DNA of 64,000 nt, taken from the NCBI GenBank assembly GCA_030693325.1, contig JAUYAV010000019.1, positions 134,618 to 198,617 on the forward strand. Reading direction: 5' to 3'. Shown here in pieces: positions 3,037 to 63,242 of the stretch. Under the pieces are notes generated by a model that was not told the origin of the DNA, did not search any database, and was given only the letters and a program-made list of their open reading frames with translations. Position numbers and translations under genes: made by a program. How positions within the stretch are numbered: the first letter of the stretch is position 1; each line of letters opens with the position of its first letter. The stretch is from a bacterium. Lineage in GTDB: Bacteria > Patescibacteriota > Minisyncoccia > UBA6257 > MFKM01.

Positions 3037-3528
3037 ATGGAACATAAAACATTCCAAGATTCAAAAAAAAGCGGCTTTACTTTAATTGAGCTTTTAATAA
3101 CAATAGCCATTTTGACGACCCTCGCGGTTATTGGCGGCGTTAATCTTTTTAGTTATTCCAGCCGTCAAAGTTTAACCTCGGCCGCCGATGAAATTGTCGC
3201 CATTCTCAGGCAGGCCCAAACTAGTTCCATAAGTCAGGAAAGCGGAGACCAATGGGGTGTTCATTTTTTAAATGCGACAACGACCCAGGGTTTGATTCAG
3301 CTTTTTCACGGGTCCAGCTTTGCCGCCGGCACCTTGGTTAACAGCCAGGTTTTGCCTTCCGGCGTTCAATTTATTAATCCCGTTTCTGGTACTTCCACGG
3401 ATGTTATTTTTTCAAAAGTGACTGGTTATCCGAATGCCTCCGCGTCTATCAAGTTGGCTCTTATAATTGATTCTAATACGTCTTCCACTATTACTATCAG
3501 CGCCATAGGTAAGGTGTCTAGATTTTAG
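3037..3528 (+). CDS. Prepilin-type N-terminal cleavage/methylation domain protein (pilin/pseudopilin)
   Basis: N-terminus KKSGFTLIELLITIAIL: class III signal G|FTLIE followed by a hydrophobic helix. Confidence 0.8.
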   Translation: MEHKTFQDSKKSGFTLIELLITIAILTTLAVIGGVNLFSYSSRQSLTSAADEIVAILRQAQTSSISQESGDQWGVHFLNATTTQGLIQLFHGSSFAAGTLVNSQVLPSGVQFINPVSGTSTDVIFSKVTGYPNASASIKLALIIDSNTSSTITISAIGKVSRF

Positions 3529-4520: not shown

Positions 4521-5078
4521 ATGGAAGAACAAACAACTCAACCAGAAGAAATTAAACCCGCCTCCGCTGACTCGGCCTCCATAGCCGAAGCTACTTCGGC
4601 GAAGGAGGCAGCTTCGGCGGGCAAGGAAGAAAAAACAGAGGACGAATTATCAAAATGCCAAAAAGAAAAGGATGAATATCTTGACGGCTGGAAACGCGCC
4701 AAAGCCGAACTTATCAATTATAAAAAAGATGAGGCTAAGCGGTTTGAAATAGTGATAAAGCTGGCTAATGAAGGACTGATTAAAGAATTATTATTGGTTT
4801 TGGACAGTTTTGATTTGGGATTGGCATCTTCGGAAAAAGAAGGTTCGGCGCAAAAAGGGATGTACTTGATTCGTTCGCAACTCAAGGATATTCTTAAATC
4901 TTACGGCTTGGAGGAAATAGAAACTTCGCCCGGCGAAAAATTTGATATAAATATTCATGAAGCAGTGGCAGAAATAGAATCAGATCAGCCGTCTGGAACT
5001 GTGATTGAAGAAGTTGAAAAGGGTTATTTATTAAACGGCCGGGTCATCAGGCCGGTTAGAGTAAGAATTTCTAAATAA
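4521..5078 (+). CDS. grpE: Nucleotide exchange factor GrpE
   Basis: 185 aa; acidic N-terminus, coiled coil and a GrpE-like C-terminal region; directly upstream of dnaK. Confidence 0.8.
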   Translation: MEEQTTQPEEIKPASADSASIAEATSAKEAASAGKEEKTEDELSKCQKEKDEYLDGWKRAKAELINYKKDEAKRFEIVIKLANEGLIKELLLVLDSFDLGLASSEKEGSAQKGMYLIRSQLKDILKSYGLEEIETSPGEKFDINIHEAVAEIESDQPSGTVIEEVEKGYLLNGRVIRPVRVRISK

Positions 5079-41590: not shown

Positions 41591-41606
41591 AGTTTTCTAA
41601 ACTATT

Positions 41607-41807
41607 ATGAAATTTAATCAAGAATGGGATTTTATAACTACCGAAGTCCACGGCGAAAAACCAAGCAAAACAAACCTGTCCAAAAGAGAAATATTATTTG
41701 CTCTGCAAATTCTGCTAACCAAAATTGGGCGAACAACCGAAATAAGCAAAATGCATTTTTTAAGAGAAAATTATTTCAGCTTAAAAGAGGCATACTTTCT
41801 CGCATAG
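41607..41807 (+). CDS. Small hypothetical protein (uncertain; overlaps an alternative-frame ORF)
   Basis: ORF only. Confidence 0.2.
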   Translation: MKFNQEWDFITTEVHGEKPSKTNLSKREILFALQILLTKIGRTTEISKMHFLRENYFSLKEAYFLA

Positions 41808-41943
41808 AACCAAAGGACTTTGGCGATAAAGAAACATATCCTCAATTTCAATTATGGTATGTTTAGCAAAAAAGATTTTTGAAACTAGAGAACAAGTAGT
41901 GTAAAATTAACCCCAAAGGCATACTTCAATTAAAATAATCCAA

Positions 41944-42129
41944 TTGGAGATAACATTTATGGCAATCTTAATTATCTATATAGCAATTTCTCTGGCGATG
42001 GGTGTGAATATAGAAAAATCGATAAATTCCTCAAATTATAAACGTCCATTAGCGGTGAGAATCGGCTTATATATTACAGCGATAATGCTACTTATACTTT
42101 TAGCCAAAATACTGAAAATAAATTTATGA
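41944..42129 (+). CDS. Small membrane protein
   Basis: Two TM helices. Confidence 0.35.
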   Translation: MEITFMAILIIYIAISLAMGVNIEKSINSSNYKRPLAVRIGLYITAIMLLILLAKILKINL

Positions 42130-42192
42130 ATACAAGGGGAATAATTAAAGATTTTTTAATAAAATATAAATAGGTTAAATATATTTAAAATT

Positions 42193-42384
42193 ATGAACAT
42201 TCAAGTGATATTTACTCTGGCCGTGGTAATTATTTTAATAGTAGCAGCTCTTTACTTTAAGCCACTAAGAAAAGCGATAGGTTTATTGCTTGTCATTTTA
42301 GGTACGCTTGTGAGCTTGACGGTTATTGGTTTAGTCTTAGGTATACCAACGATAATTATTGGTGGTCTTTTATTATTTATTTAA
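42193..42384 (+). CDS. Small membrane protein
   Basis: Two TM helices. Confidence 0.35.
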   Translation: MNIQVIFTLAVVIILIVAALYFKPLRKAIGLLLVILGTLVSLTVIGLVLGIPTIIIGGLLLFI

Positions 42385-42614
42385 TGAATAAAATTAAAGA
42401 ATATAAGTGGATTATTTTAATAACACTTCTAATTTTAGGGTTTAGTTTTTATTGGTTTTCGTGGAGACCAAGTGAAATCCGCAAAGATTGTTTTCAAAAA
42501 GAGTATAGCTATGTTTACTACCCAACATCTGAAAGCAACCGGCTTGTAGGAAATGCATTGGACTTTAATTACGAGTATCTAAAATGTGTTCGTTTTTTCG
42601 GGTTACCAAATTAA
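42384..42614 (+). CDS. Small protein with an N-terminal TM anchor
   Basis: ORF overlaps the previous stop (ATGA). Confidence 0.35.
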   Translation: MNKIKEYKWIILITLLILGFSFYWFSWRPSEIRKDCFQKEYSYVYYPTSESNRLVGNALDFNYEYLKCVRFFGLPN

Positions 42615-42880
42615 TTATGGATTTTTGTCATTTTAATTGTCAATTTAGAGGAGAGGTAAAAAAAATTAATAACCATTTTTATATTTTAAAAAATAGGTAT
42701 GCTTTGCCACCGCTGACTAAAATGCCCAAGTTAAATCCCTTACCAGTTATTTCTATACCAGCTCCTCAATCAAATATTCCTCCAATTACTCTTAGTATTG
42801 AGTCGGTAGATGGTTTTTAGGTATTGACTAATCTTGGCCATGCGGCCTTAAGTTGTAATAAATTTTTTGTAAGGAAGGAT

Positions 42881-42918
42881 AAAAGCGCCCGCCTATCAGT
42901 AGGCGGTTTTTTATTTTT
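42881..42918 (+). terminator. Rho-independent terminator at the end of the island
   Basis: aaaagcgcccgcctatcagtaggcggttttttattttt. Confidence 0.65.
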
Positions 42919-42929
42919 TGCTAAAGAAA

Positions 42930-42992
42930 ATGCCCTTGGATTTGGAAAAACTTAATAAAGAGCAAAAAGGAGTAGCGAAAGCTAGGGTATAG
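42930..42992 (+). pseudogene. 5' fragment of the UvrD-like helicase gene (MPLDLEKLNKEQKGVAKARV*), ~42 nt near-identical to 44216-44257
   Basis: Direct comparison shows 3 mismatches over 42 nt, followed by divergence and an in-frame stop. Confidence 0.6.
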
Positions 42993-43088
42993 CGAAAAAC
43001 AAGTACTTCAATAACTGATTGAGGTATTTTTATTAATTCCACCGAGCAAGCTCCATAATCCAAAAATTCGTGGTAAAATGATAAAAAT

Positions 43089-55217: not shown

Positions 55218-56142
55218 AAAATTTATTTGCCATTGAACGGGCCTGATTTTCCGTCTTAATCCAAATAATACTTTTATCCCTTTTAAACCAGGTTATCTGG
55301 CGTTTGGCGTAGCGGTAAATTTCTTTTTTCATTTGCTCGGTCATTTCTTCATAAGAAATCAAACCGCGCAGATAATCGGCGGCCAGCCGGTATTCCAAGC
55401 CCAATTCCCCAAACCGTTTCCAGTTTAGTCCTTTTTTGTGGAGTTTTTCTATTTCTTCAATCAGACCTTTTTTCAGCGTTTTTTCCAATCTTTGATTGAT
55501 TAACTGCCGAAGTTCGTTTGGTGTTTTTTTGATGCCTATTTTTAATACCGCAAACGCGGTCGCTGATTTCCGCTGATTCCGCTGATTTACGCTGATAGCA
55601 TTTCGCTCTAACGGCGGTACGGGAGATCCGGTTGTGATAACGATTTCCAGGGCCCTGACTAATCTTCTTCGGTTGCAAGGGTCAATATTAGCCGCTCTTT
55701 TGGGATCAAATTTCTGAAGCATCCGGAAAAGTTCTTCTAATGATTTTTTTTCAAGCCGTTTTCGCAAACCTTTCTGAGGAGCCACGGCCGGCAATTTATA
55801 ATCATAAATCAAAGCGTCAATGTAAAATCCGCTGCCGCCGACTATTATTGGAAATTTATTTTTTTTAAAAATTCCATTCAGGATTTTTTTGGCCGCTTTT
55901 TGATATTGGACCACAGTATAAGTTTTTTGCGGCTTAACAATGTCAATCATATGATGTTTGACGCCTTTCATTTCTTTTTTGGTTATTTTTTCCGTGCCGA
56001 TATTCAGTCCTTTATAAATCTGGCGGGAGTCAGCCGAAATTATTTCGCCGTTAAATTTCTTGGCGATTTTAATGGCCAATTGCGATTTCCCGGAAGCCGT
56101 CGGCCCGAGAATGACGATGATTTTATTATTTATATTTTTCAT
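55207..56142 (-). CDS. miaA: tRNA dimethylallyltransferase
   Basis: GPTASGKS P-loop; IISADSRQIY. Confidence 0.9.
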   Translation of the reverse strand: MKNINNKIIVILGPTASGKSQLAIKIAKKFNGEIISADSRQIYKGLNIGTEKITKKEMKGVKHHMIDIVKPQKTYTVVQYQKAAKKILNGIFKKNKFPIIVGGSGFYIDALIYDYKLPAVAPQKGLRKRLEKKSLEELFRMLQKFDPKRAANIDPCNRRRLVRALEIVITTGSPVPPLERNAISVNQRNQRKSATAFAVLKIGIKKTPNELRQLINQRLEKTLKKGLIEEIEKLHKKGLNWKRFGELGLEYRLAADYLRGLISYEEMTEQMKKEIYRYAKRQITWFKRDKSIIWIKTENQARSMANKFLLL

Positions 56143-56228
56143 TTATTTCATTATAAACCATTTTGGTTGATTTTTTTAAAAAAAAGTGTCCCGATAGTTA
56201 TCGGGACACTGTGCTATAAGGAGGTGAA

Positions 56229-56732
56229 TTAAATATTGGGGATTTTTATCAGGAATCCGACTGGTAGCGCTCTGACTTGATCGGGGCAAGAACCAAGATT
56301 GTTAAGCCAAGCGGTATGTTTCCAATTTTTTCCGGCCAATTTGAACAAGGTATCGCCCGGCATAATTTTGTGTATGTACCCGGGGAATTTAATTATTCTA
56401 CCCGCTTGCAGATTGTCGGCGTCTTTAATATGGTTGAATTTAGCGACTTTTAACGCATTTATTCCCCCAAAGAGACTATATAGAGTGTCTCCGGTTTTTA
56501 CTTTATAGCTCAAGAGCGGGCGGTTTTCCGCGGTTTTGAGTTTTCTGGAAAGCAAAGAAACTTTCTGGGAAAGGTGGCCTATCTGAACTTCTTTTTTCTG
56601 TATTTGCTGTTTCGCGAGCGCAACTGTCTGCTGCGACTGGGAAAGCTGATTATTCTTGGAGTTAAATGCGAATGCCAAGCCGACTATCAAAACCAGGCTA
56701 ATCAGTCCGATTATCACATTAGATATTTTCAT
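56229..56732 (-). CDS. LysM-domain peptidoglycan-binding protein with an N-terminal TM anchor and two LysM repeats
   Basis: YKVKTGDTLYSLFG and HKIMPGDTLFKLAG. Confidence 0.8.
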   Translation of the reverse strand: MKISNVIIGLISLVLIVGLAFAFNSKNNQLSQSQQTVALAKQQIQKKEVQIGHLSQKVSLLSRKLKTAENRPLLSYKVKTGDTLYSLFGGINALKVAKFNHIKDADNLQAGRIIKFPGYIHKIMPGDTLFKLAGKNWKHTAWLNNLGSCPDQVRALPVGFLIKIPNI

Positions 56733-56744
56733 TGCGTTCCCTCC

Positions 56745-56850
56745 TTCTGTAAAACGTCCTGCGCTGCCGGCAATCCGGCCAGGATTGCTTTGGACGGCCC
56801 TTCCTTACGGGCGTTGGTCACCGCGCCAAAATTAGCACGGGGGACTTGTC
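56745..56850 (-). ncRNA. GC-rich (~65%) structured RNA candidate in the LysM leader, closed by CCUGCGC…GCGCAGG with nested GC hairpins. Riboswitch or other cis-regulatory RNA; identity not established.
   Basis: Compositional island and nested complementary segments read on the minus strand; a GUAA tetraloop is followed by GGAAGGGC. Confidence 0.4.
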
Positions 56851-56878
56851 GGTGCGCAGGGTATTGGTTAATAAATTA

Positions 56879-56965
56879 ATGGAAATAAACAGGCAGTTTA
56901 AGGTCGTGCCCGCGACCGCGTACAACAGCCTTCTTTGCAATGAGCGACCGATCTAATCAGCCAGC
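56879..56965 (-). CDS. Candidate 28-aa Cys-containing uORF peptide (MARNNIRWLIRSVAHCKEGCCTRSRARP) with a perfect SD AAAGGAGGTG
   Basis: Read manually on the minus strand; not in the ORF track because it is shorter than 60 aa. Confidence 0.3.
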
Positions 56966-57082
56966 GAATATTGTTTCTTGCCATTTTTACACCTCCTTTT
57001 AGTTAGATTTTTATGTTAAAAAGCTTTTTAAAGCAAAGCAAAGTTTTAACTTTATGTCAAGACGTTTGCGGAAATTCTGTCG

Positions 57083-58834
57083 TTAAATGGTTTTGTCCGC
57101 GATCTCTTTTTTGATTTGCTCAAGAAGTTTTTCCAGTTTGATTTCTCCTTCCTGGCCGCGGCGGTAGTGGCGGATATTAACGGTATCGTTTTGAAGTTCT
57201 TTGTCGCCGACAACCAGAACATAGGGAATTTTTTGGATTTCGGCTTCGCGGATGCGTTTGGAAACCGTCAGGTTTTCGTCGCTAAGAGAAACGCGGATGC
57301 CGTTTGCTGATAGCTGTGAATTAATTTCTTGAGCGTAAGTTATATGGGCGGCTCCGATATTGATTATTTGCGCTTGGACAGGGGATAGCCAAAGCGGCAA
57401 GGCGCCGGCGTAATGCTCCAGCAACATTCCGAAAAATCTTTCCAGCGAGCCCATCAGCGCGCGGTGAATCATATATGGCCGGTGGGTTTTGCCGTCTTTA
57501 TCAACGAATTCCATTTTGAATTTTTCGGGCATATTGAAATCAAACTGGATGGTGGAGCATTGCCATTCGCGGCCAAGGGCGTCTTTTATTTTAATGTCTA
57601 TTTTTGGGCCGTAAAAAGCGCCGCCGCCTTCGTCAACGGAATAATCAAGTTTGGAATCTTTTAAGGTTTTTTCAAGGGCGAGGGTGGCTTCCTCCCACAT
57701 TTTTTTACTGCCGACTGATTTTTTTTTGGGCTTGGTGGAAAGATAAATATGAAAATCATTAAAGCCGAAACTTTTCAAAATATAAAAACAGAAATCCAGA
57801 ACTTTTTTGATTTCAAAAGGCATTTGTTCGGGGGTGCAGATTAAATGGGCATCATCCTGAGTGAAACCGCGGACGCGCAAAAGTCCATGGAGAACTCCGG
57901 CTTTTTCGTAGCGGTAAACTGTTCCAAGTTCCGCCCAACGCATCGGCAAATCCCGATAAGAGCGGATGCGGTTTTTGTAAATTAAAATATGGAACGGGCA
58001 GTTCATCGGTTTGATATAATATTCGTTTTCGTCTATTTCCATCGGGCTGTACATATTTTCTTTGTAAAAATCCAAATGGCCGCTGGTTTCCCAGAGGGTT
58101 GATTTGCCGATGTGCGGTGTGAAAACGATTTCGTAGCCGTTTTGATAATGAGCCTGGCGCCAAAAATCTTCTATTATTACCCGGATGCGGCCGGCCTTGG
58201 GGTGCCAGTAGATTAAGCCGGGCCCGCCCATGCTTTCGTGAATACTGAATAAATCCAAATCCTGGCCTAAGCGGCGGTGGTCGCGTTTCTGGGCTTCGGC
58301 GATTGTACTGATATAGCCGTCTAATTCTTTTTTGGTTTCAAAAGCCAGGCCGTAAATCCGGGTGAGCATCGGATTTTTTTCATCGCCTTTCCAGTAAGCT
58401 CCGGCAATTTTTATCAAATTAAAAGCTTCTGGGTCTATTTCTTTGGTGTTTTTAATATGAGGTCCGGCGCATAAATCAACAAATTCTCCATTTTGATAAA
58501 CGGTGATTTGTTTAGAAGGCAGATCTTTTAATAGTTCTAATTTATATGGCTGGTTTTTGAATATTTTTTTGGCTTCGGCTTTGGAAACTAATTTTCTTTT
58601 GAAAGAAATATTCTGCTTTATCAATTCTTTCATCCGCTTTTCTATTTTCGGCAAATTTTCGGGAGACAACCCGCCTTCGCCAGAGGCTTTGGCGGGCAAG
58701 TCAAAATCATAATAAAAGCCGTTTTCAATGGCCGGCCCGATGCCGAATTTTACGCCAGGAAAAATTTCGCCGACCGCTGCGGCCATAATATGGGATAAAG
58801 AATGGCGGATTTTATTTAATTGGATATCAGGCAT
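57083..58834 (-). CDS. thrS: Threonyl-tRNA synthetase. The start is revised to MPDIQL, because the track's upstream ATG lies inside the palindromic element.
   Basis: Class II core, HxxxH editing motif and anticodon-binding domain. Confidence 0.9.
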   Translation of the reverse strand: MPDIQLNKIRHSLSHIMAAAVGEIFPGVKFGIGPAIENGFYYDFDLPAKASGEGGLSPENLPKIEKRMKELIKQNISFKRKLVSKAEAKKIFKNQPYKLELLKDLPSKQITVYQNGEFVDLCAGPHIKNTKEIDPEAFNLIKIAGAYWKGDEKNPMLTRIYGLAFETKKELDGYISTIAEAQKRDHRRLGQDLDLFSIHESMGGPGLIYWHPKAGRIRVIIEDFWRQAHYQNGYEIVFTPHIGKSTLWETSGHLDFYKENMYSPMEIDENEYYIKPMNCPFHILIYKNRIRSYRDLPMRWAELGTVYRYEKAGVLHGLLRVRGFTQDDAHLICTPEQMPFEIKKVLDFCFYILKSFGFNDFHIYLSTKPKKKSVGSKKMWEEATLALEKTLKDSKLDYSVDEGGGAFYGPKIDIKIKDALGREWQCSTIQFDFNMPEKFKMEFVDKDGKTHRPYMIHRALMGSLERFFGMLLEHYAGALPLWLSPVQAQIINIGAAHITYAQEINSQLSANGIRVSLSDENLTVSKRIREAEIQKIPYVLVVGDKELQNDTVNIRHYRRGQEGEIKLEKLLEQIKKEIADKTI

Positions 58835-62131: not shown

Positions 62132-62299
62132 TTTGATATTAACATCATAATTCTTTTGCCAAAAAAACAAAACCCCCACGCCATGTGAGGGTAAAAGATC
62201 ACTTCGAAATTTCGGAGTGGTTTGACAGGCATGTTTTATTATTATTAAATAATGTGAAGTCAAACAGCAAATTAACAAATTAATATAAGGAGGTGGAAG

Positions 62300-62485
62300 A
62301 TGAATTTAAGACAGCATATTAATATGGCAAGGGGATTGGGGATTGCTCATGCAACCGCAGTTATAGTTAATTTTAAGATGGGATTGAGAAGCGGCGACCC
62401 TAAAGAAACAGATATCAGTCAATTAACTAAGGAGGAAAAACAGATTCTGATTAATGCGGGTTTGCTGAAAAAAATGAGGAGGTGA
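62300..62485 (+). CDS. Small hypothetical protein
   Basis: Strong SD AAGGAGGTG. Confidence 0.4.
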   Translation: MNLRQHINMARGLGIAHATAVIVNFKMGLRSGDPKETDISQLTKEEKQILINAGLLKKMRR

Positions 62486-62721
62486 AAAAAATGGCGAGAG
62501 GATGTCCTGAATGTGGCAGTGAAAAAATTGTAAATGAAAATACCGGCAAAGATTTAAAGATCAAGCTTTTTGGGGAAATTTTTTATATTTGTAAAGATTG
62601 CGATTGCGAATGGACGCATTGTTATGCTGTCGGTTTCAAGGTCACTCGCCATGGAAAATTCTTCAAAAAGAAAAACAAGATTCAAATCCAAGTCCGAAAA
62701 AGAGGATTAATTGTCTCTTAA
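62482..62721 (+). CDS. Small zinc-ribbon protein (CPECG…CKDCDC)
   Basis: Strong SD GAGGAGGTG; overlaps the previous stop. Confidence 0.45.
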   Translation: MKKMARGCPECGSEKIVNENTGKDLKIKLFGEIFYICKDCDCEWTHCYAVGFKVTRHGKFFKKKNKIQIQVRKRGLIVS

Positions 62722-62745
62722 AAAGTAAAGTTAGATATTTATTCC

Positions 62746-62783
62746 AAAAGCCCTGAGTTTTTACTCAGGGCTTTTTATTTATT
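62746..62783 (+). terminator. Rho-independent terminator
   Basis: aaaagccctgagtttttactcagggctttttattt. Confidence 0.75.
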
Positions 62784-62816
62784 TCCACAACACAATTTAA
62801 ATTACTAAATTCAATT

Positions 62817-62854
62817 ACTATTGTAATTCCACGATCGTGGAATTACAATAGTAA
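62817..62854. repeat. 38-bp perfect palindrome, copy 3
   Basis: Identical to 4424-4461. Confidence 0.9.
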
Positions 62855-62967
62855 AATTGGAGTTGAACTTCTTTTGCCGGGTTTGACCTTTTTTTAGAAA
62901 TATCATAAGATTAATTATTATTAATTGTATTTAGTGTGAGTAATTTGTAGTTAGGAATAAATTTTTC

Positions 62968-62996
62968 GTTTCTAATTACTAATTACTCAATTACTA
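62968..62996. repeat. Four tandem TAATTAC 7-mers upstream of rpmF
   Basis: taattactaattactcaattactaattac. Confidence 0.8.
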
Positions 62997-63028
62997 ATTA
63001 CTTAAATTTTGAGCAAAGCGAAAAATTT

Positions 63029-63178
63029 ATGGGTGGCGTACCAACAAAACATCATTCAAAATCAAAAGTCGGCCGGAGACGGTCTCAACTCTTTTTAAAG
63101 AAAGGCAAATTTGCGGTTTGTCCGGTTTGCGGCGGCCCGAAATTGTCTCATTGTTCTTGTCCGCAGTGCAAGAAATAA
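63029..63178 (+). CDS. rpmF: 50S ribosomal protein L32 (49 aa, zinc ribbon)
   Basis: Manual translation MGGVPTKHHSKSKVGRRRSQ…CPVCGGPKLSHCSCPQCKK; shorter than the ORF-track cutoff. Confidence 0.75.
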   Translation: MGGVPTKHHSKSKVGRRRSQLFLKKGKFAVCPVCGGPKLSHCSCPQCKK

Positions 63179-63242
63179 AGAGTTTGCCATAGATTTTTTT
63201 ATCCGCCTTGCCCGGCGGATTTAAAATTTATATAATAATGGT

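Follow-up and report, generated by a model that had tools for sequence, protein, structure and literature searches.

Short translated open reading frames (ORFs) with a strong ribosome-binding site, located upstream of a gene and overlapping an RNA structure with their 3' end, so that the RNA fold depends on where the ribosome stands, are known as leader peptides or attenuators (trpL, hisL, TnaC, SpeFL, Erm). A comparable arrangement was found in the patescibacterial contig JAUYAV010000019.1, within the stretch of 64,000 nucleotides (nt) from position 134,618 to 198,617 that was analysed as a whole and is called the window here. On its minus strand, a 28-codon ORF between thrS and a gene for a LysM-domain protein ends inside a 28-nt H-type pseudoknot, and a GC-rich RNA element follows further downstream. 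Other described systems resemble the pseudoknot. Intercistronic stabilisers and repetitive extragenic palindromic (REP) elements as well as phage stabilisers (T4 gene 32 pseudoknot, SP82) are likewise small structured elements after stop codons or before ribosome-binding sites, in sense orientation and with multiple copies per genome. The preQ1-I aptamer and minimal H-type aptamers have the same size of about 30 nt and the same topology of P1, a loop acting as 5' strand of P2, an A-rich tail and the 3' strand of P2. The pistol ribozyme (RF02679) shares a short P1 hairpin with an 8-nt loop (GUCUGGGC in pistol versus CYGGGCAY in the motif), six loop nucleotides pairing with a downstream GCCCAG-like strand, and an A-rich linker of 6–7 nt after P1. 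Both are present in phage and metagenomic DNA, and the covariation of the two stems S1 and S2 supports a P1-loop pseudoknot with A-rich linker for the motif as well. For lysM genes, structured RNA motifs were described in putative 5' untranslated regions (UTRs), including a phylum of the Candidate Phyla Radiation (CPR), and binding of c-di-AMP was not observed (2017, PMC5737381).

The locus differed from each of these systems. Unlike leader peptides, the small-ORF unit has neither a run of regulatory codons nor a conserved arrest motif, its C-terminal residues near the stop vary, it is also present in monocistronic form, and its structure is a pseudoknot shared with phages. Regarding attenuator-type pairing, the end of the ORF overlaps the pseudoknot, no canonical terminator was called for it in the window and no alternative pairing was backed by covariation. 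In contrast to stabilisers and REP elements, the motif is a pseudoknot rather than a simple hairpin and is near-identical across host phyla and two bacterial contexts. The difference to preQ1-I is the absence of an Rfam match together with several copies per phage genome before unrelated genes and tRNAs, which is not riboswitch-like. In the motif, the pseudoknot partner directly follows the linker, and there is no counterpart of pistol's helices P2 and P3 or of its G-U cleavage site. The pistol covariance model did not match the window or the motif copies, whereas a true pistol in locus L170 scored 41 bits. Compared with the lysM motifs, the GC-rich element of the window was without Rfam match, and its sequence is unshared even with the closest relatives.

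The locus is best read as three separable things: a translated small ORF, a pseudoknot at its 3' end and a lineage-specific, stable GC-rich RNA in the 5' UTR of the LysM gene. The original prediction, made from the letters of the window, had described the ORF and the GC-rich segment. The most conserved RNA feature is not this segment but the pseudoknot at 56917–56890, which had been overlooked. The features of the ORF and the pseudoknot are:

56991–56998, minus strand: AAGGAGGT, Shine-Dalgarno sequence belonging to the small ORF, separated by 7 nt from the ATG at 56984
56898–56984, minus strand: small ORF of 28 codons plus stop, product MARNNIRWLIRSVAHCKEGCCTRSRARP by ORF translation
56925–56984, minus strand: codons 1–20, protein-conserved core MARNxIRWLIRPVAHCKEGC, delimited by codon-position entropy
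56918–56924, minus strand: hypervariable spacer, codons 21–23, between peptide core and pseudoknot (alignment columns 61–68)
56890–56917, minus strand: H-type pseudoknot of 28 nt, identified by pattern match, both stems covarying

The perfect Shine-Dalgarno sequence and the 28-codon ORF of the original prediction were confirmed, including the product. Homologues were collected from metagenome contigs with a degenerate DNA pattern for IRWLI...A.CKE, which allowed only synonymous variation at codons 6–10 and 16–18 and yielded 17 loci, two of which were chance matches. A Shine-Dalgarno sequence and ATG were present in 17 distinct homologous sequences, plus L115 and the fusion in L114 described below, and the Shine-Dalgarno spacing was identical in all homologous copies. 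Codons 1–20 varied mainly at the third position (17 distinct sequences, two unrelated gene contexts). At columns not constrained by the search pattern, the entropy by codon position was 0.40/0.16/0.92. For codons 21–29 it was 0.67/0.65/0.33 and the periodicity was lost. Arginine codons showed synonymous switches of two nucleotides, AGA to CGC in L113 and AGA to CGG in L085. The peptide was nearly invariant at 19 of the first 20 positions in both gene contexts. In several copies Ser, Arg or Pro took the place of Cys21, and His that of Cys20. Residues adjoining the stop were variable. The frame was ended early by UAG or UGA at codons 23, 25 and 27, codon 23 being the earliest stop in any copy, and the nucleotides downstream of these stops were nonetheless conserved. 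By this codon pattern, the small ORF is coding and conserved, with its first 20 residues under purifying selection, and codons 21–28 are conserved as RNA and not as protein.

The peptide matched no family in Pfam and NCBIfam. A protein search of the whole database with concatenated peptide variants retrieved only an in-frame extension of 87 amino acids (aa) and the L114 fusion, and the ORF had no match by BLAST against plasmids and phages or, with its pattern, in viral contigs. In none of the fetched loci was the ORF of 87 nt called as a gene. Standard gene callers apply a minimum of 90 nt, so that an ORF of this length is too short. Locus L114 (P0125, 803–1219) held a natural in-frame fusion of small-ORF codons 1–24 to a secreted YHS-domain protein. 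It was found by protein words and not by the DNA pattern, and it kept the reading frame with further synonymous changes (CGA, GGA); it lies on a single Logan contig of 1.4 kb, so that an assembly artefact is possible. The small ORF is among the best-conserved sequences in these loci and may be an example of a hidden small protein or a nascent-peptide sensor.

Copies of the ORF were affiliated with two gene contexts. The thrS context, with the ORF downstream of thrS, was represented by Parcubacteria-like contigs (L085/L109, L092, L096, L101, L107, L111 and L115), all with Shine-Dalgarno sequence. The collections contained no close relatives of the organism. The LysM protein of the window matched only itself and two 38%-identical proteins, and the best match of its threonyl-tRNA synthetase (ThrRS) was 60% identical in species-representative genomes (Parcubacteria) and about 70% overall. 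Downstream of thrS, three classes were found in relatives: a miaB-miaA fusion directly adjoining thrS, miaA directly adjoining it, or small ORFs with or without LysM followed by miaA. The window belongs to the third class, with LysM before miaA. Orthologues of the LysM protein behind the same ORF and pseudoknot were present in L096 (56% identity) and L115 (49%), and synteny was kept between lineages whose ThrRS proteins share only about 70% identity. The second context comprised ten matches in metal-transport clusters, with the ORF directly 3' of a gene for DUF1622, a CitMHS/ArsB-type permease, an RND protein or a P-type ATPase, and always upstream of a gene for a secreted YHS-domain protein. 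An absence of the ORF from relatives, considered in the original prediction, is not the case because the ORF was found there with its coding signature. The ORF is no dedicated LysM leader, as in other contigs it stands alone between promoter and terminator or precedes the YHS gene.

A promoter downstream of thrS was conserved in the relatives L096 and L109 (TTGACA-17-TATATT/TATTTT). In L096 it is located directly 3' of thrS as TTGACA-17-TATATT with 11 of 12 matches. The terminator was positioned 3' of LysM in L096 and directly 3' of ORF and pseudoknot in L109, where the two are monocistronic between promoter and terminator.

The pseudoknot overlaps the last seven codons and the stop of the ORF, the UAA (56900–56898) lying within loop L3. 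In the window, stem S1 is formed by GGUC (56917–56914) pairing with GACC (56905–56902), and S2 by CGGGCA (56912–56907) pairing with UGCCUG (56895–56890), with UUAAAC as L3. The class has a variable S1 of 4 bp, C as L1, YGGGCA/UGCCCR as S2, Y as L2 and the A-rich YUAAAC as L3, giving the consensus C-NNN-C-YGGGCA-Y-N'N'N'-G-YUAAAC-UGCCCR. The outer S1 pair is G-C in the window copy and C-G in the consensus.

Viral contigs scanned with the pattern GTCCNNGGNAYGACRYTAAAC contained at least 120 matching stretches, compared to a chance estimate of about a dozen that assumes an unverified collection size. Among the matches listed, contigs often held two or three copies each. The first scan gave at least 118 distinct viral copies and a second one with S1 as NNN gave 71, together at least 156 distinct copies. 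The 3' arm, which was free in the pattern, was conserved as UGCC and complementary (118 distinct copies, among the matches listed). At the variable 5' position, A was matched by U in 27 of 32 cases and G by C or U. With S1 as NNN, triplets were Watson-Crick complementary in 66 of the 71 distinct copies, in 12 combinations, and two more copies had one G-U pair. Pairs were counted over 112 sequences with the structure ..((((.[[[[[[.))))......]]]]]]... and 500 shuffles. Paired cells amounted to 90.4% versus 83.9% in shuffles, cells with double changes to 69 versus 23.5, and the covariation score was 0.292 versus 0.173. None of the 500 shuffles reached the observed value in any of the three measures. 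Compensatory changes were detected in all four S1 pairs and in three of the six S2 pairs. G-U pairs were frequent in the stems, which suggests that this strand acts as RNA or in another single-stranded form. Conservation was confined to the 28 nt, with none beyond position +26. Judged by the covariation of its stems, the H-type pseudoknot exists and is widespread. No Rfam family ever matched the motif, and a literal sequence search in the literature returned unrelated primers only.

The copies in viruses were always intergenic and had the same sense as the genes flanking them. Distances between the upstream stop codon and the pseudoknot peaked at 6–8 nt (51 of 87 copies), those between the pseudoknot and the next start at 19–22 nt (39 of 94 copies). 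Synechococcus phage S-EIVl carried six intergenic copies with at most two mismatches, all on the gene strand, and Moorella phage MTATph1 and Nostoc phage NMeng1 carried one copy each. Cyanobacterial phages, Firmicutes phages and the two bacterial contexts share a near-identical sequence. Some copies ended 1–3 nt 5' of a tRNA, in L158 (521–547, inside a phage array of 21 tRNAs) and in L167 (4755–4781). The copy of NMeng1 (L309, 2503–2529) lies 1–3 nt before an annotated pseudo-tRNA, which ARAGORN does not call as a tRNA. The non-viral loci fetched (916 kb) and the 64-kb window contained the motif only fused to the small ORF, once in the window. All non-viral copies have an ORF that continues into the pseudoknot, unlike phage ORFs, which stop 6–8 nt before it. 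The length of the spacer at 56918–56924 agrees with this stop-to-pseudoknot gap of the phage copies.

Several other explanations for the conserved stretch were rejected. A promoter for phage RNA polymerase or of sigma type as sole explanation does not agree with the covariation of both stems and the allowed G-U pairs. For a sigma-54 promoter, the GG-to-GC spacing is 15 nt instead of 11. The UGA-plus-hairpin geometry of a selenocysteine insertion sequence (SECIS) element is absent, matched take-off and landing codons for bypassing of the gene-60 type are missing, and a slippery site for −1 frameshifting is lacking. In addition, the ORFs downstream start with a Shine-Dalgarno sequence and an ATG of their own. 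An operator mimic for ThrRS was dismissed since the CGU triplet is not conserved once S1 varies.

Taken together, the ORF–pseudoknot pair is tentatively proposed to be a translation-gated RNA module, with a likelihood just short of even. The pseudoknot would be a module at the RNA level that decides the fate of the transcript at cistron ends, most likely by 3'-end protection or processing. In phages, it would be located just outside the footprints of terminating and initiating ribosomes and hence stay folded. The spacings have sharp lower bounds, 6 nt and 19 nt, which fits a module that has to remain folded, and the copies adjoining tRNA 5' ends point to a role in RNA fate and not in translation itself. 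The ORF of the bacterial cassette extends 17–23 nt into the pseudoknot, and a finishing ribosome would have to melt it. Between the end of the conserved peptide and the pseudoknot lie about 7 nt, which would be the distance at which the ribosome entry channel meets downstream structure. Because the stop codon lies inside the pseudoknot and the ribosome must melt the structure, folding may be gated by translation of the ORF. The pair could then serve as a translation sensor for its own mRNA and the follower, which is LysM here, the YHS protein elsewhere or only a terminator.

A broader proposal is possible, at a lower probability. The pseudoknot would be an undescribed and widespread RNA class that punctuates polycistronic and tRNA transcripts in phages of several host phyla and is coupled in a few bacteria, including a CPR lineage, to a dedicated, highly conserved 20-residue peptide; peptide and pseudoknot might form a new kind of translation-gated or peptide-binding switch, and the motif could also be the ancestral core of pistol ribozymes. 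Undescribed refers here to the comparison with Rfam 15 and the literal literature search. If the pseudoknot is a functional cistron-boundary signal, it would be a compact, largely sequence-defined module common to cyanobacterial and Firmicutes phages and at least two kinds of bacteria, and it could explain the processing or stabilisation of some phage transcripts and tRNA arrays.

Several observations weigh against a translation-gated module. In L109 the terminator is reached before any regulated gene. The L114 fusion has lost the pseudoknot together with the spacer and the Shine-Dalgarno sequence downstream. Since L114 lacks the pseudoknot and has the peptide fused to the YHS protein, at least one organism, by this contig, does without the coupling of peptide and pseudoknot, and the peptide itself may have a separate role. 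The strong conservation of the S2 and L3 sequences across hosts suggests a specific partner of the pseudoknot. The promoter after thrS is only partly kept in the window, with TTGACA retained and the −10 element degenerate. Furthermore, the search patterns fixed parts of the motif and the ORF, and diversity outside of them is undersampled.

The main rival is an autonomous small-protein gene combined with a generic boundary element, which is considered rather unlikely. A Cys/His/Arg peptide of 20–28 aa would act in trans, e.g. by binding metals or thiols or a conserved machine, and the overlap of ORF and pseudoknot would have no regulatory meaning. The monocistronic unit of L109 with its own promoter and terminator fits such a gene, as does the second context, where the ORF closely follows a DUF1622, permease or RND gene in the manner of a normal operon member. 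The near invariance of the peptide in both contexts and the frame kept in L114 without the pseudoknot point in the same direction. This explanation does not account for the finding that all non-viral ORFs read into the pseudoknot instead of stopping 6–8 nt short of it like phage ORFs, nor for the motif never being without the ORF in the fetched non-viral loci, and no family for the peptide was found in Pfam or NCBIfam.

That the pseudoknot is a catalytic or processing RNA is improbable. It would be either a self-cleaving ribozyme related to pistol or a substrate of RNase P or another RNase at cistron and tRNA boundaries. The layout of the motif resembles the 5' half of the Rfam pistol consensus, with the P1 loop GUCuggGC, the linker AUAAAuA and the partner GCccaG in pistol versus GUCCUGGGCA, GUUAAAC and UGCCC in the motif. 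The copies immediately before tRNA 5' ends in L158, L167 and NMeng1 would suit a processing site. Known RNAs were detected near some copies in viral contigs: the true pistol of L170 (6968–7029) lies about 270 nt from two tandem pseudoknot copies, and a RAGATH-5 RNA in L131 (2617–2669, minus strand, 52 bits) lies about 1 kb from a copy. Both neighbours agree with this explanation. However, the pistol model never matched the motif, P2, P3 and the GU cleavage site are absent, and no sequence is conserved outside the 28 nt. To our knowledge, 28 nt is smaller than any natural self-cleaving class.

Structured sequences were also observed around the pseudoknot. Insertions of 50–75 nt with GC-rich hairpins were present inside L3 (L103, L113) and just before S2 (L104). 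L109 contained a perfect palindrome of about 44 nt at about 3380–3460 on the minus strand, and L099 had short direct repeats downstream of the ORF. Structured insertions thus seem to be drawn to the surroundings of the pseudoknot.

This clustering agrees with a selfish repeat similar to REP elements or palindrome-associated transposable elements (PATE), which would be spread by a single-strand DNA transposase or by recombination and whose positions would be tolerated insertion sites. The motif is short, multi-copy and strictly intergenic, and G-T pairs are also tolerated in hairpins of single-stranded DNA. This explanation is nevertheless very unlikely. REP families are typically species-specific, whereas the motif is near-identical in cyanobacterial and Firmicutes phages and two bacterial contexts. 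It has a constant sense orientation, sharp spacing limits and retained synteny among ThrRS lineages of about 70% identity, and no associated transposase was seen. Many copies per bacterial genome in either orientation, with a REP-associated tyrosine transposase (RAYT) or TnpA, were not found in the contigs and loci covered (916 kb and the window).

The third component of the locus, the GC-rich RNA before LysM, is flanked by the following features:

56861–56889, minus strand: AU-rich spacer directly 3' of the pseudoknot, starting with UUUAUUU in the sequence
56758–56860, minus strand: GC-rich multi-stem RNA of 103 nt, in which P1 (CCUGCGC/GCGCAGG) encloses three hairpins in the fold prediction
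56739–56747, minus strand: Shine-Dalgarno sequence GAAGGAGGG of the LysM gene (start 56732), placed by the fold predictions in a hairpin loop or outside any pairing

The U-rich tract of the spacer was also present in L085/L109, L101 and L096, and was interrupted by GAA in L092/L107/L111/L115. It was not scored as a terminator in a scan of the window. The GC-rich segment closed by CCUGCGC...GCGCAGG and the second strong Shine-Dalgarno sequence before LysM were both recovered as predicted. GC content was 0.65 over 56861–56757 compared to 0.41 in the whole window, where a value of 0.60 is attained by only 0.9% of 100-nt segments. The further GC peaks that were looked up all lie inside ORFs of the window ORF map. 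A core of 126 nt folded at −49.5 kcal/mol (z = −3.63), and none of 200 shuffles folded as well. Among the nested hairpins that had been proposed, GCCC-GUAAGGAA-GGGC is part of the minimum-energy fold. The second, GCCGG-AUUG-CCGGC, is possible but not in that fold, which takes the mutually exclusive pairing GCAAUCC/GGAUUGC. There is no terminator between 56758 and 56732. With the LysM Shine-Dalgarno sequence exposed in the predicted folds and no terminator 3' of the element, the latter is without visible expression platform.

The Rfam 15 search with cmscan covered the whole window at gathering thresholds and positions 56650–57150 at E ≤ 10, and also L096. Only four tRNAs were found in the whole window at gathering thresholds. 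Nothing relevant was detected in L096 or, at E ≤ 10, over 56650–57150, with no match to the tRNA model in 56650–57150, and ARAGORN called neither tRNA nor tmRNA over 56000–57500. The motifs lysM-TM7 and lysM-Actino as well as lysM-Prevotella are curated in Rfam 15; no Rfam family for them matched the window. Because Rfam gave no relevant match, ydaO, signal recognition particle (SRP) RNA and the published lysM motifs, the latter insofar as they are in Rfam, are excluded. The ydaO/c-di-AMP riboswitch (RF00379, a pseudo-two-fold aptamer of about 130–150 nt) that had been considered in the original prediction is not supported, as it matched neither at gathering thresholds nor at E ≤ 10 and an expression platform is missing. 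The same applies to the resemblance to SRP RNA. SRP domain IV has a GNRA loop and conserved symmetric and asymmetric loops with the motifs AGCA and CAGG, and these motifs are lacking in GCCC-GUAA-GGAAGGGC, which gave no match at E ≤ 10.

Covariation of the GC-rich segment in relatives had been suggested as a check, and a different structured RNA or only a terminator was found there. Searches of the core with nhmmer and blastn against 80 ThrRS loci and the window itself gave no match. At this position, L109 has only a terminator and the long palindrome. A structured RNA of another type, A2, is located between pseudoknot and LysM in L096 (3152–3284) and L115 (5156–5291), with about 115–136 nt and a closing stem of 15 bp. 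It is also present in L107 (989–1124, minus strand), where a terminator and miaA without LysM follow, and in L111 (851–986, minus strand). A2 has a conserved AAGCC/GGCUU hairpin and a variable distal domain and matched no Rfam family. It is a candidate new motif, represented by four sequences with one compensatory pair. Homology between A2 and the GC-rich element of the window was rejected, as the A2 covariance model (R2) found all four members and not the window with filters off. In the loci compared, the GC-rich element is found only in the window lineage, at a position that repeatedly acquires structured GC-rich sequence.

That the element is a ligand-sensing LysM leader for c-di-AMP or another ligand, or a small SRP-like RNA, is highly improbable and largely refuted for known classes. 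Its high stability, the structured RNA before LysM in relatives and the structured motifs upstream of lysM in other phyla, TM7 included (PMC5737381), would agree with such a leader. Opposed to this are the Rfam result and the absence of SRP domain IV motifs, the lack of an expression platform with the Shine-Dalgarno sequence exposed, the missing conservation with the relatives' covariance model finding no match here, the element of L107 that precedes a terminator and not LysM, and the published lysM motifs that did not bind c-di-AMP (PMC5737381). The GC-rich leader should not be annotated as a c-di-AMP riboswitch or SRP RNA. Rather than a ligand switch, it may be a spacer or stabiliser of structural type that leaves the Shine-Dalgarno sequence exposed.

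That the whole ORF is non-coding and part of a longer structured RNA, its codon pattern being an artefact of a search that permitted only synonymous changes at codons 6–10 and 16–18, is hardly credible, since the two hairpins proposed by RNAalifold inside the coding part show almost only one-sided changes, the periodicity is clear at unconstrained columns, Shine-Dalgarno sequence and ATG are invariant with no stop before codon 23, and L114, found by protein words, keeps the frame with extra synonymous changes.

The surrounding genes on the minus strand are dnaE, thrS (58864–57083), the intergenic region of 350 nt, the LysM gene (56732–56229) and miaA, with gatB convergent. The intergenic region (56733–57082) had a GC content of 0.46, the highest among the intergenic regions of at least 80 nt in the window. 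The LysM protein comprises 167 aa, is membrane-anchored and matched Pfam LysM at 1.3e-8. Further features of the transcription unit are:

57055–57060, minus strand: −35-like hexamer TTGACA just 3' of the thrS stop, read from the sequence
56229–56732, minus strand: LysM gene for a membrane-anchored LysM-domain protein (Pfam LysM 1.3e-8), with orthologues in L096 and L115
56185–56210, minus strand: intrinsic terminator closing the small-ORF/LysM unit, an 11-bp stem followed by a run of eight T

The TTGACA site after thrS was not called in a promoter scan of the window. Elsewhere in the window, two regions with GC 0.31–0.34, 41591–43088 (1498 nt) and 62279–63242 (964 nt), contained no ORF of at least 110 aa in the greedy ORF map and no Rfam match at gathering thresholds.

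The loci with the closest ThrRS relatives have one gene for 617–651 aa downstream of thrS (L082 4665–6602, L083 3858–5795, L086 4746–6599, L095 2180–4132). In L082, L083 and L086 it carries Pfam domains of a MiaB-like protein (UPF0004 and radical SAM) and MiaA (IPPT). The window has miaA alone, and the small-ORF/LysM unit fills the place of the miaB half. An origin of the intergenic region as a miaB relic of this fusion was rejected, as tblastn found no trace of miaB in the window. A weak match (22 bits) of the covariance model for ORF and pseudoknot (R1) was located inside miaA of L012 (9208–9326). The MiaA motif NKRRLIRAIEVCK resembles the peptide sequence RNHIRWLIRPVAHCK, and the ORF adjoins miaA in the thrS context. 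Homology was rejected here, and the likeness of NKRRLIRAIEVCK to the peptide is probably due to chance.

Additional small ORFs with a strong Shine-Dalgarno sequence were present in relatives between thrS and the 28-codon ORF (L096 2835–3019 and 2627–2806, L092 at about 4853–5029, L115 4853–5020). A Cys-rich ORF of 61 aa (MGCPHGY...LCSLCSSGTP) is common to L096, L092 and L115, and a hydrophobic one of 58 aa was found in L096; both are absent from the window. Directly 3' of the LysM terminator, the window contains a promoter-like TTAAAA-18-TATAAT at 56150–56179 on the minus strand. The position of this site, directly after the terminator, suggests separate transcription of miaA and the small-ORF/LysM unit.

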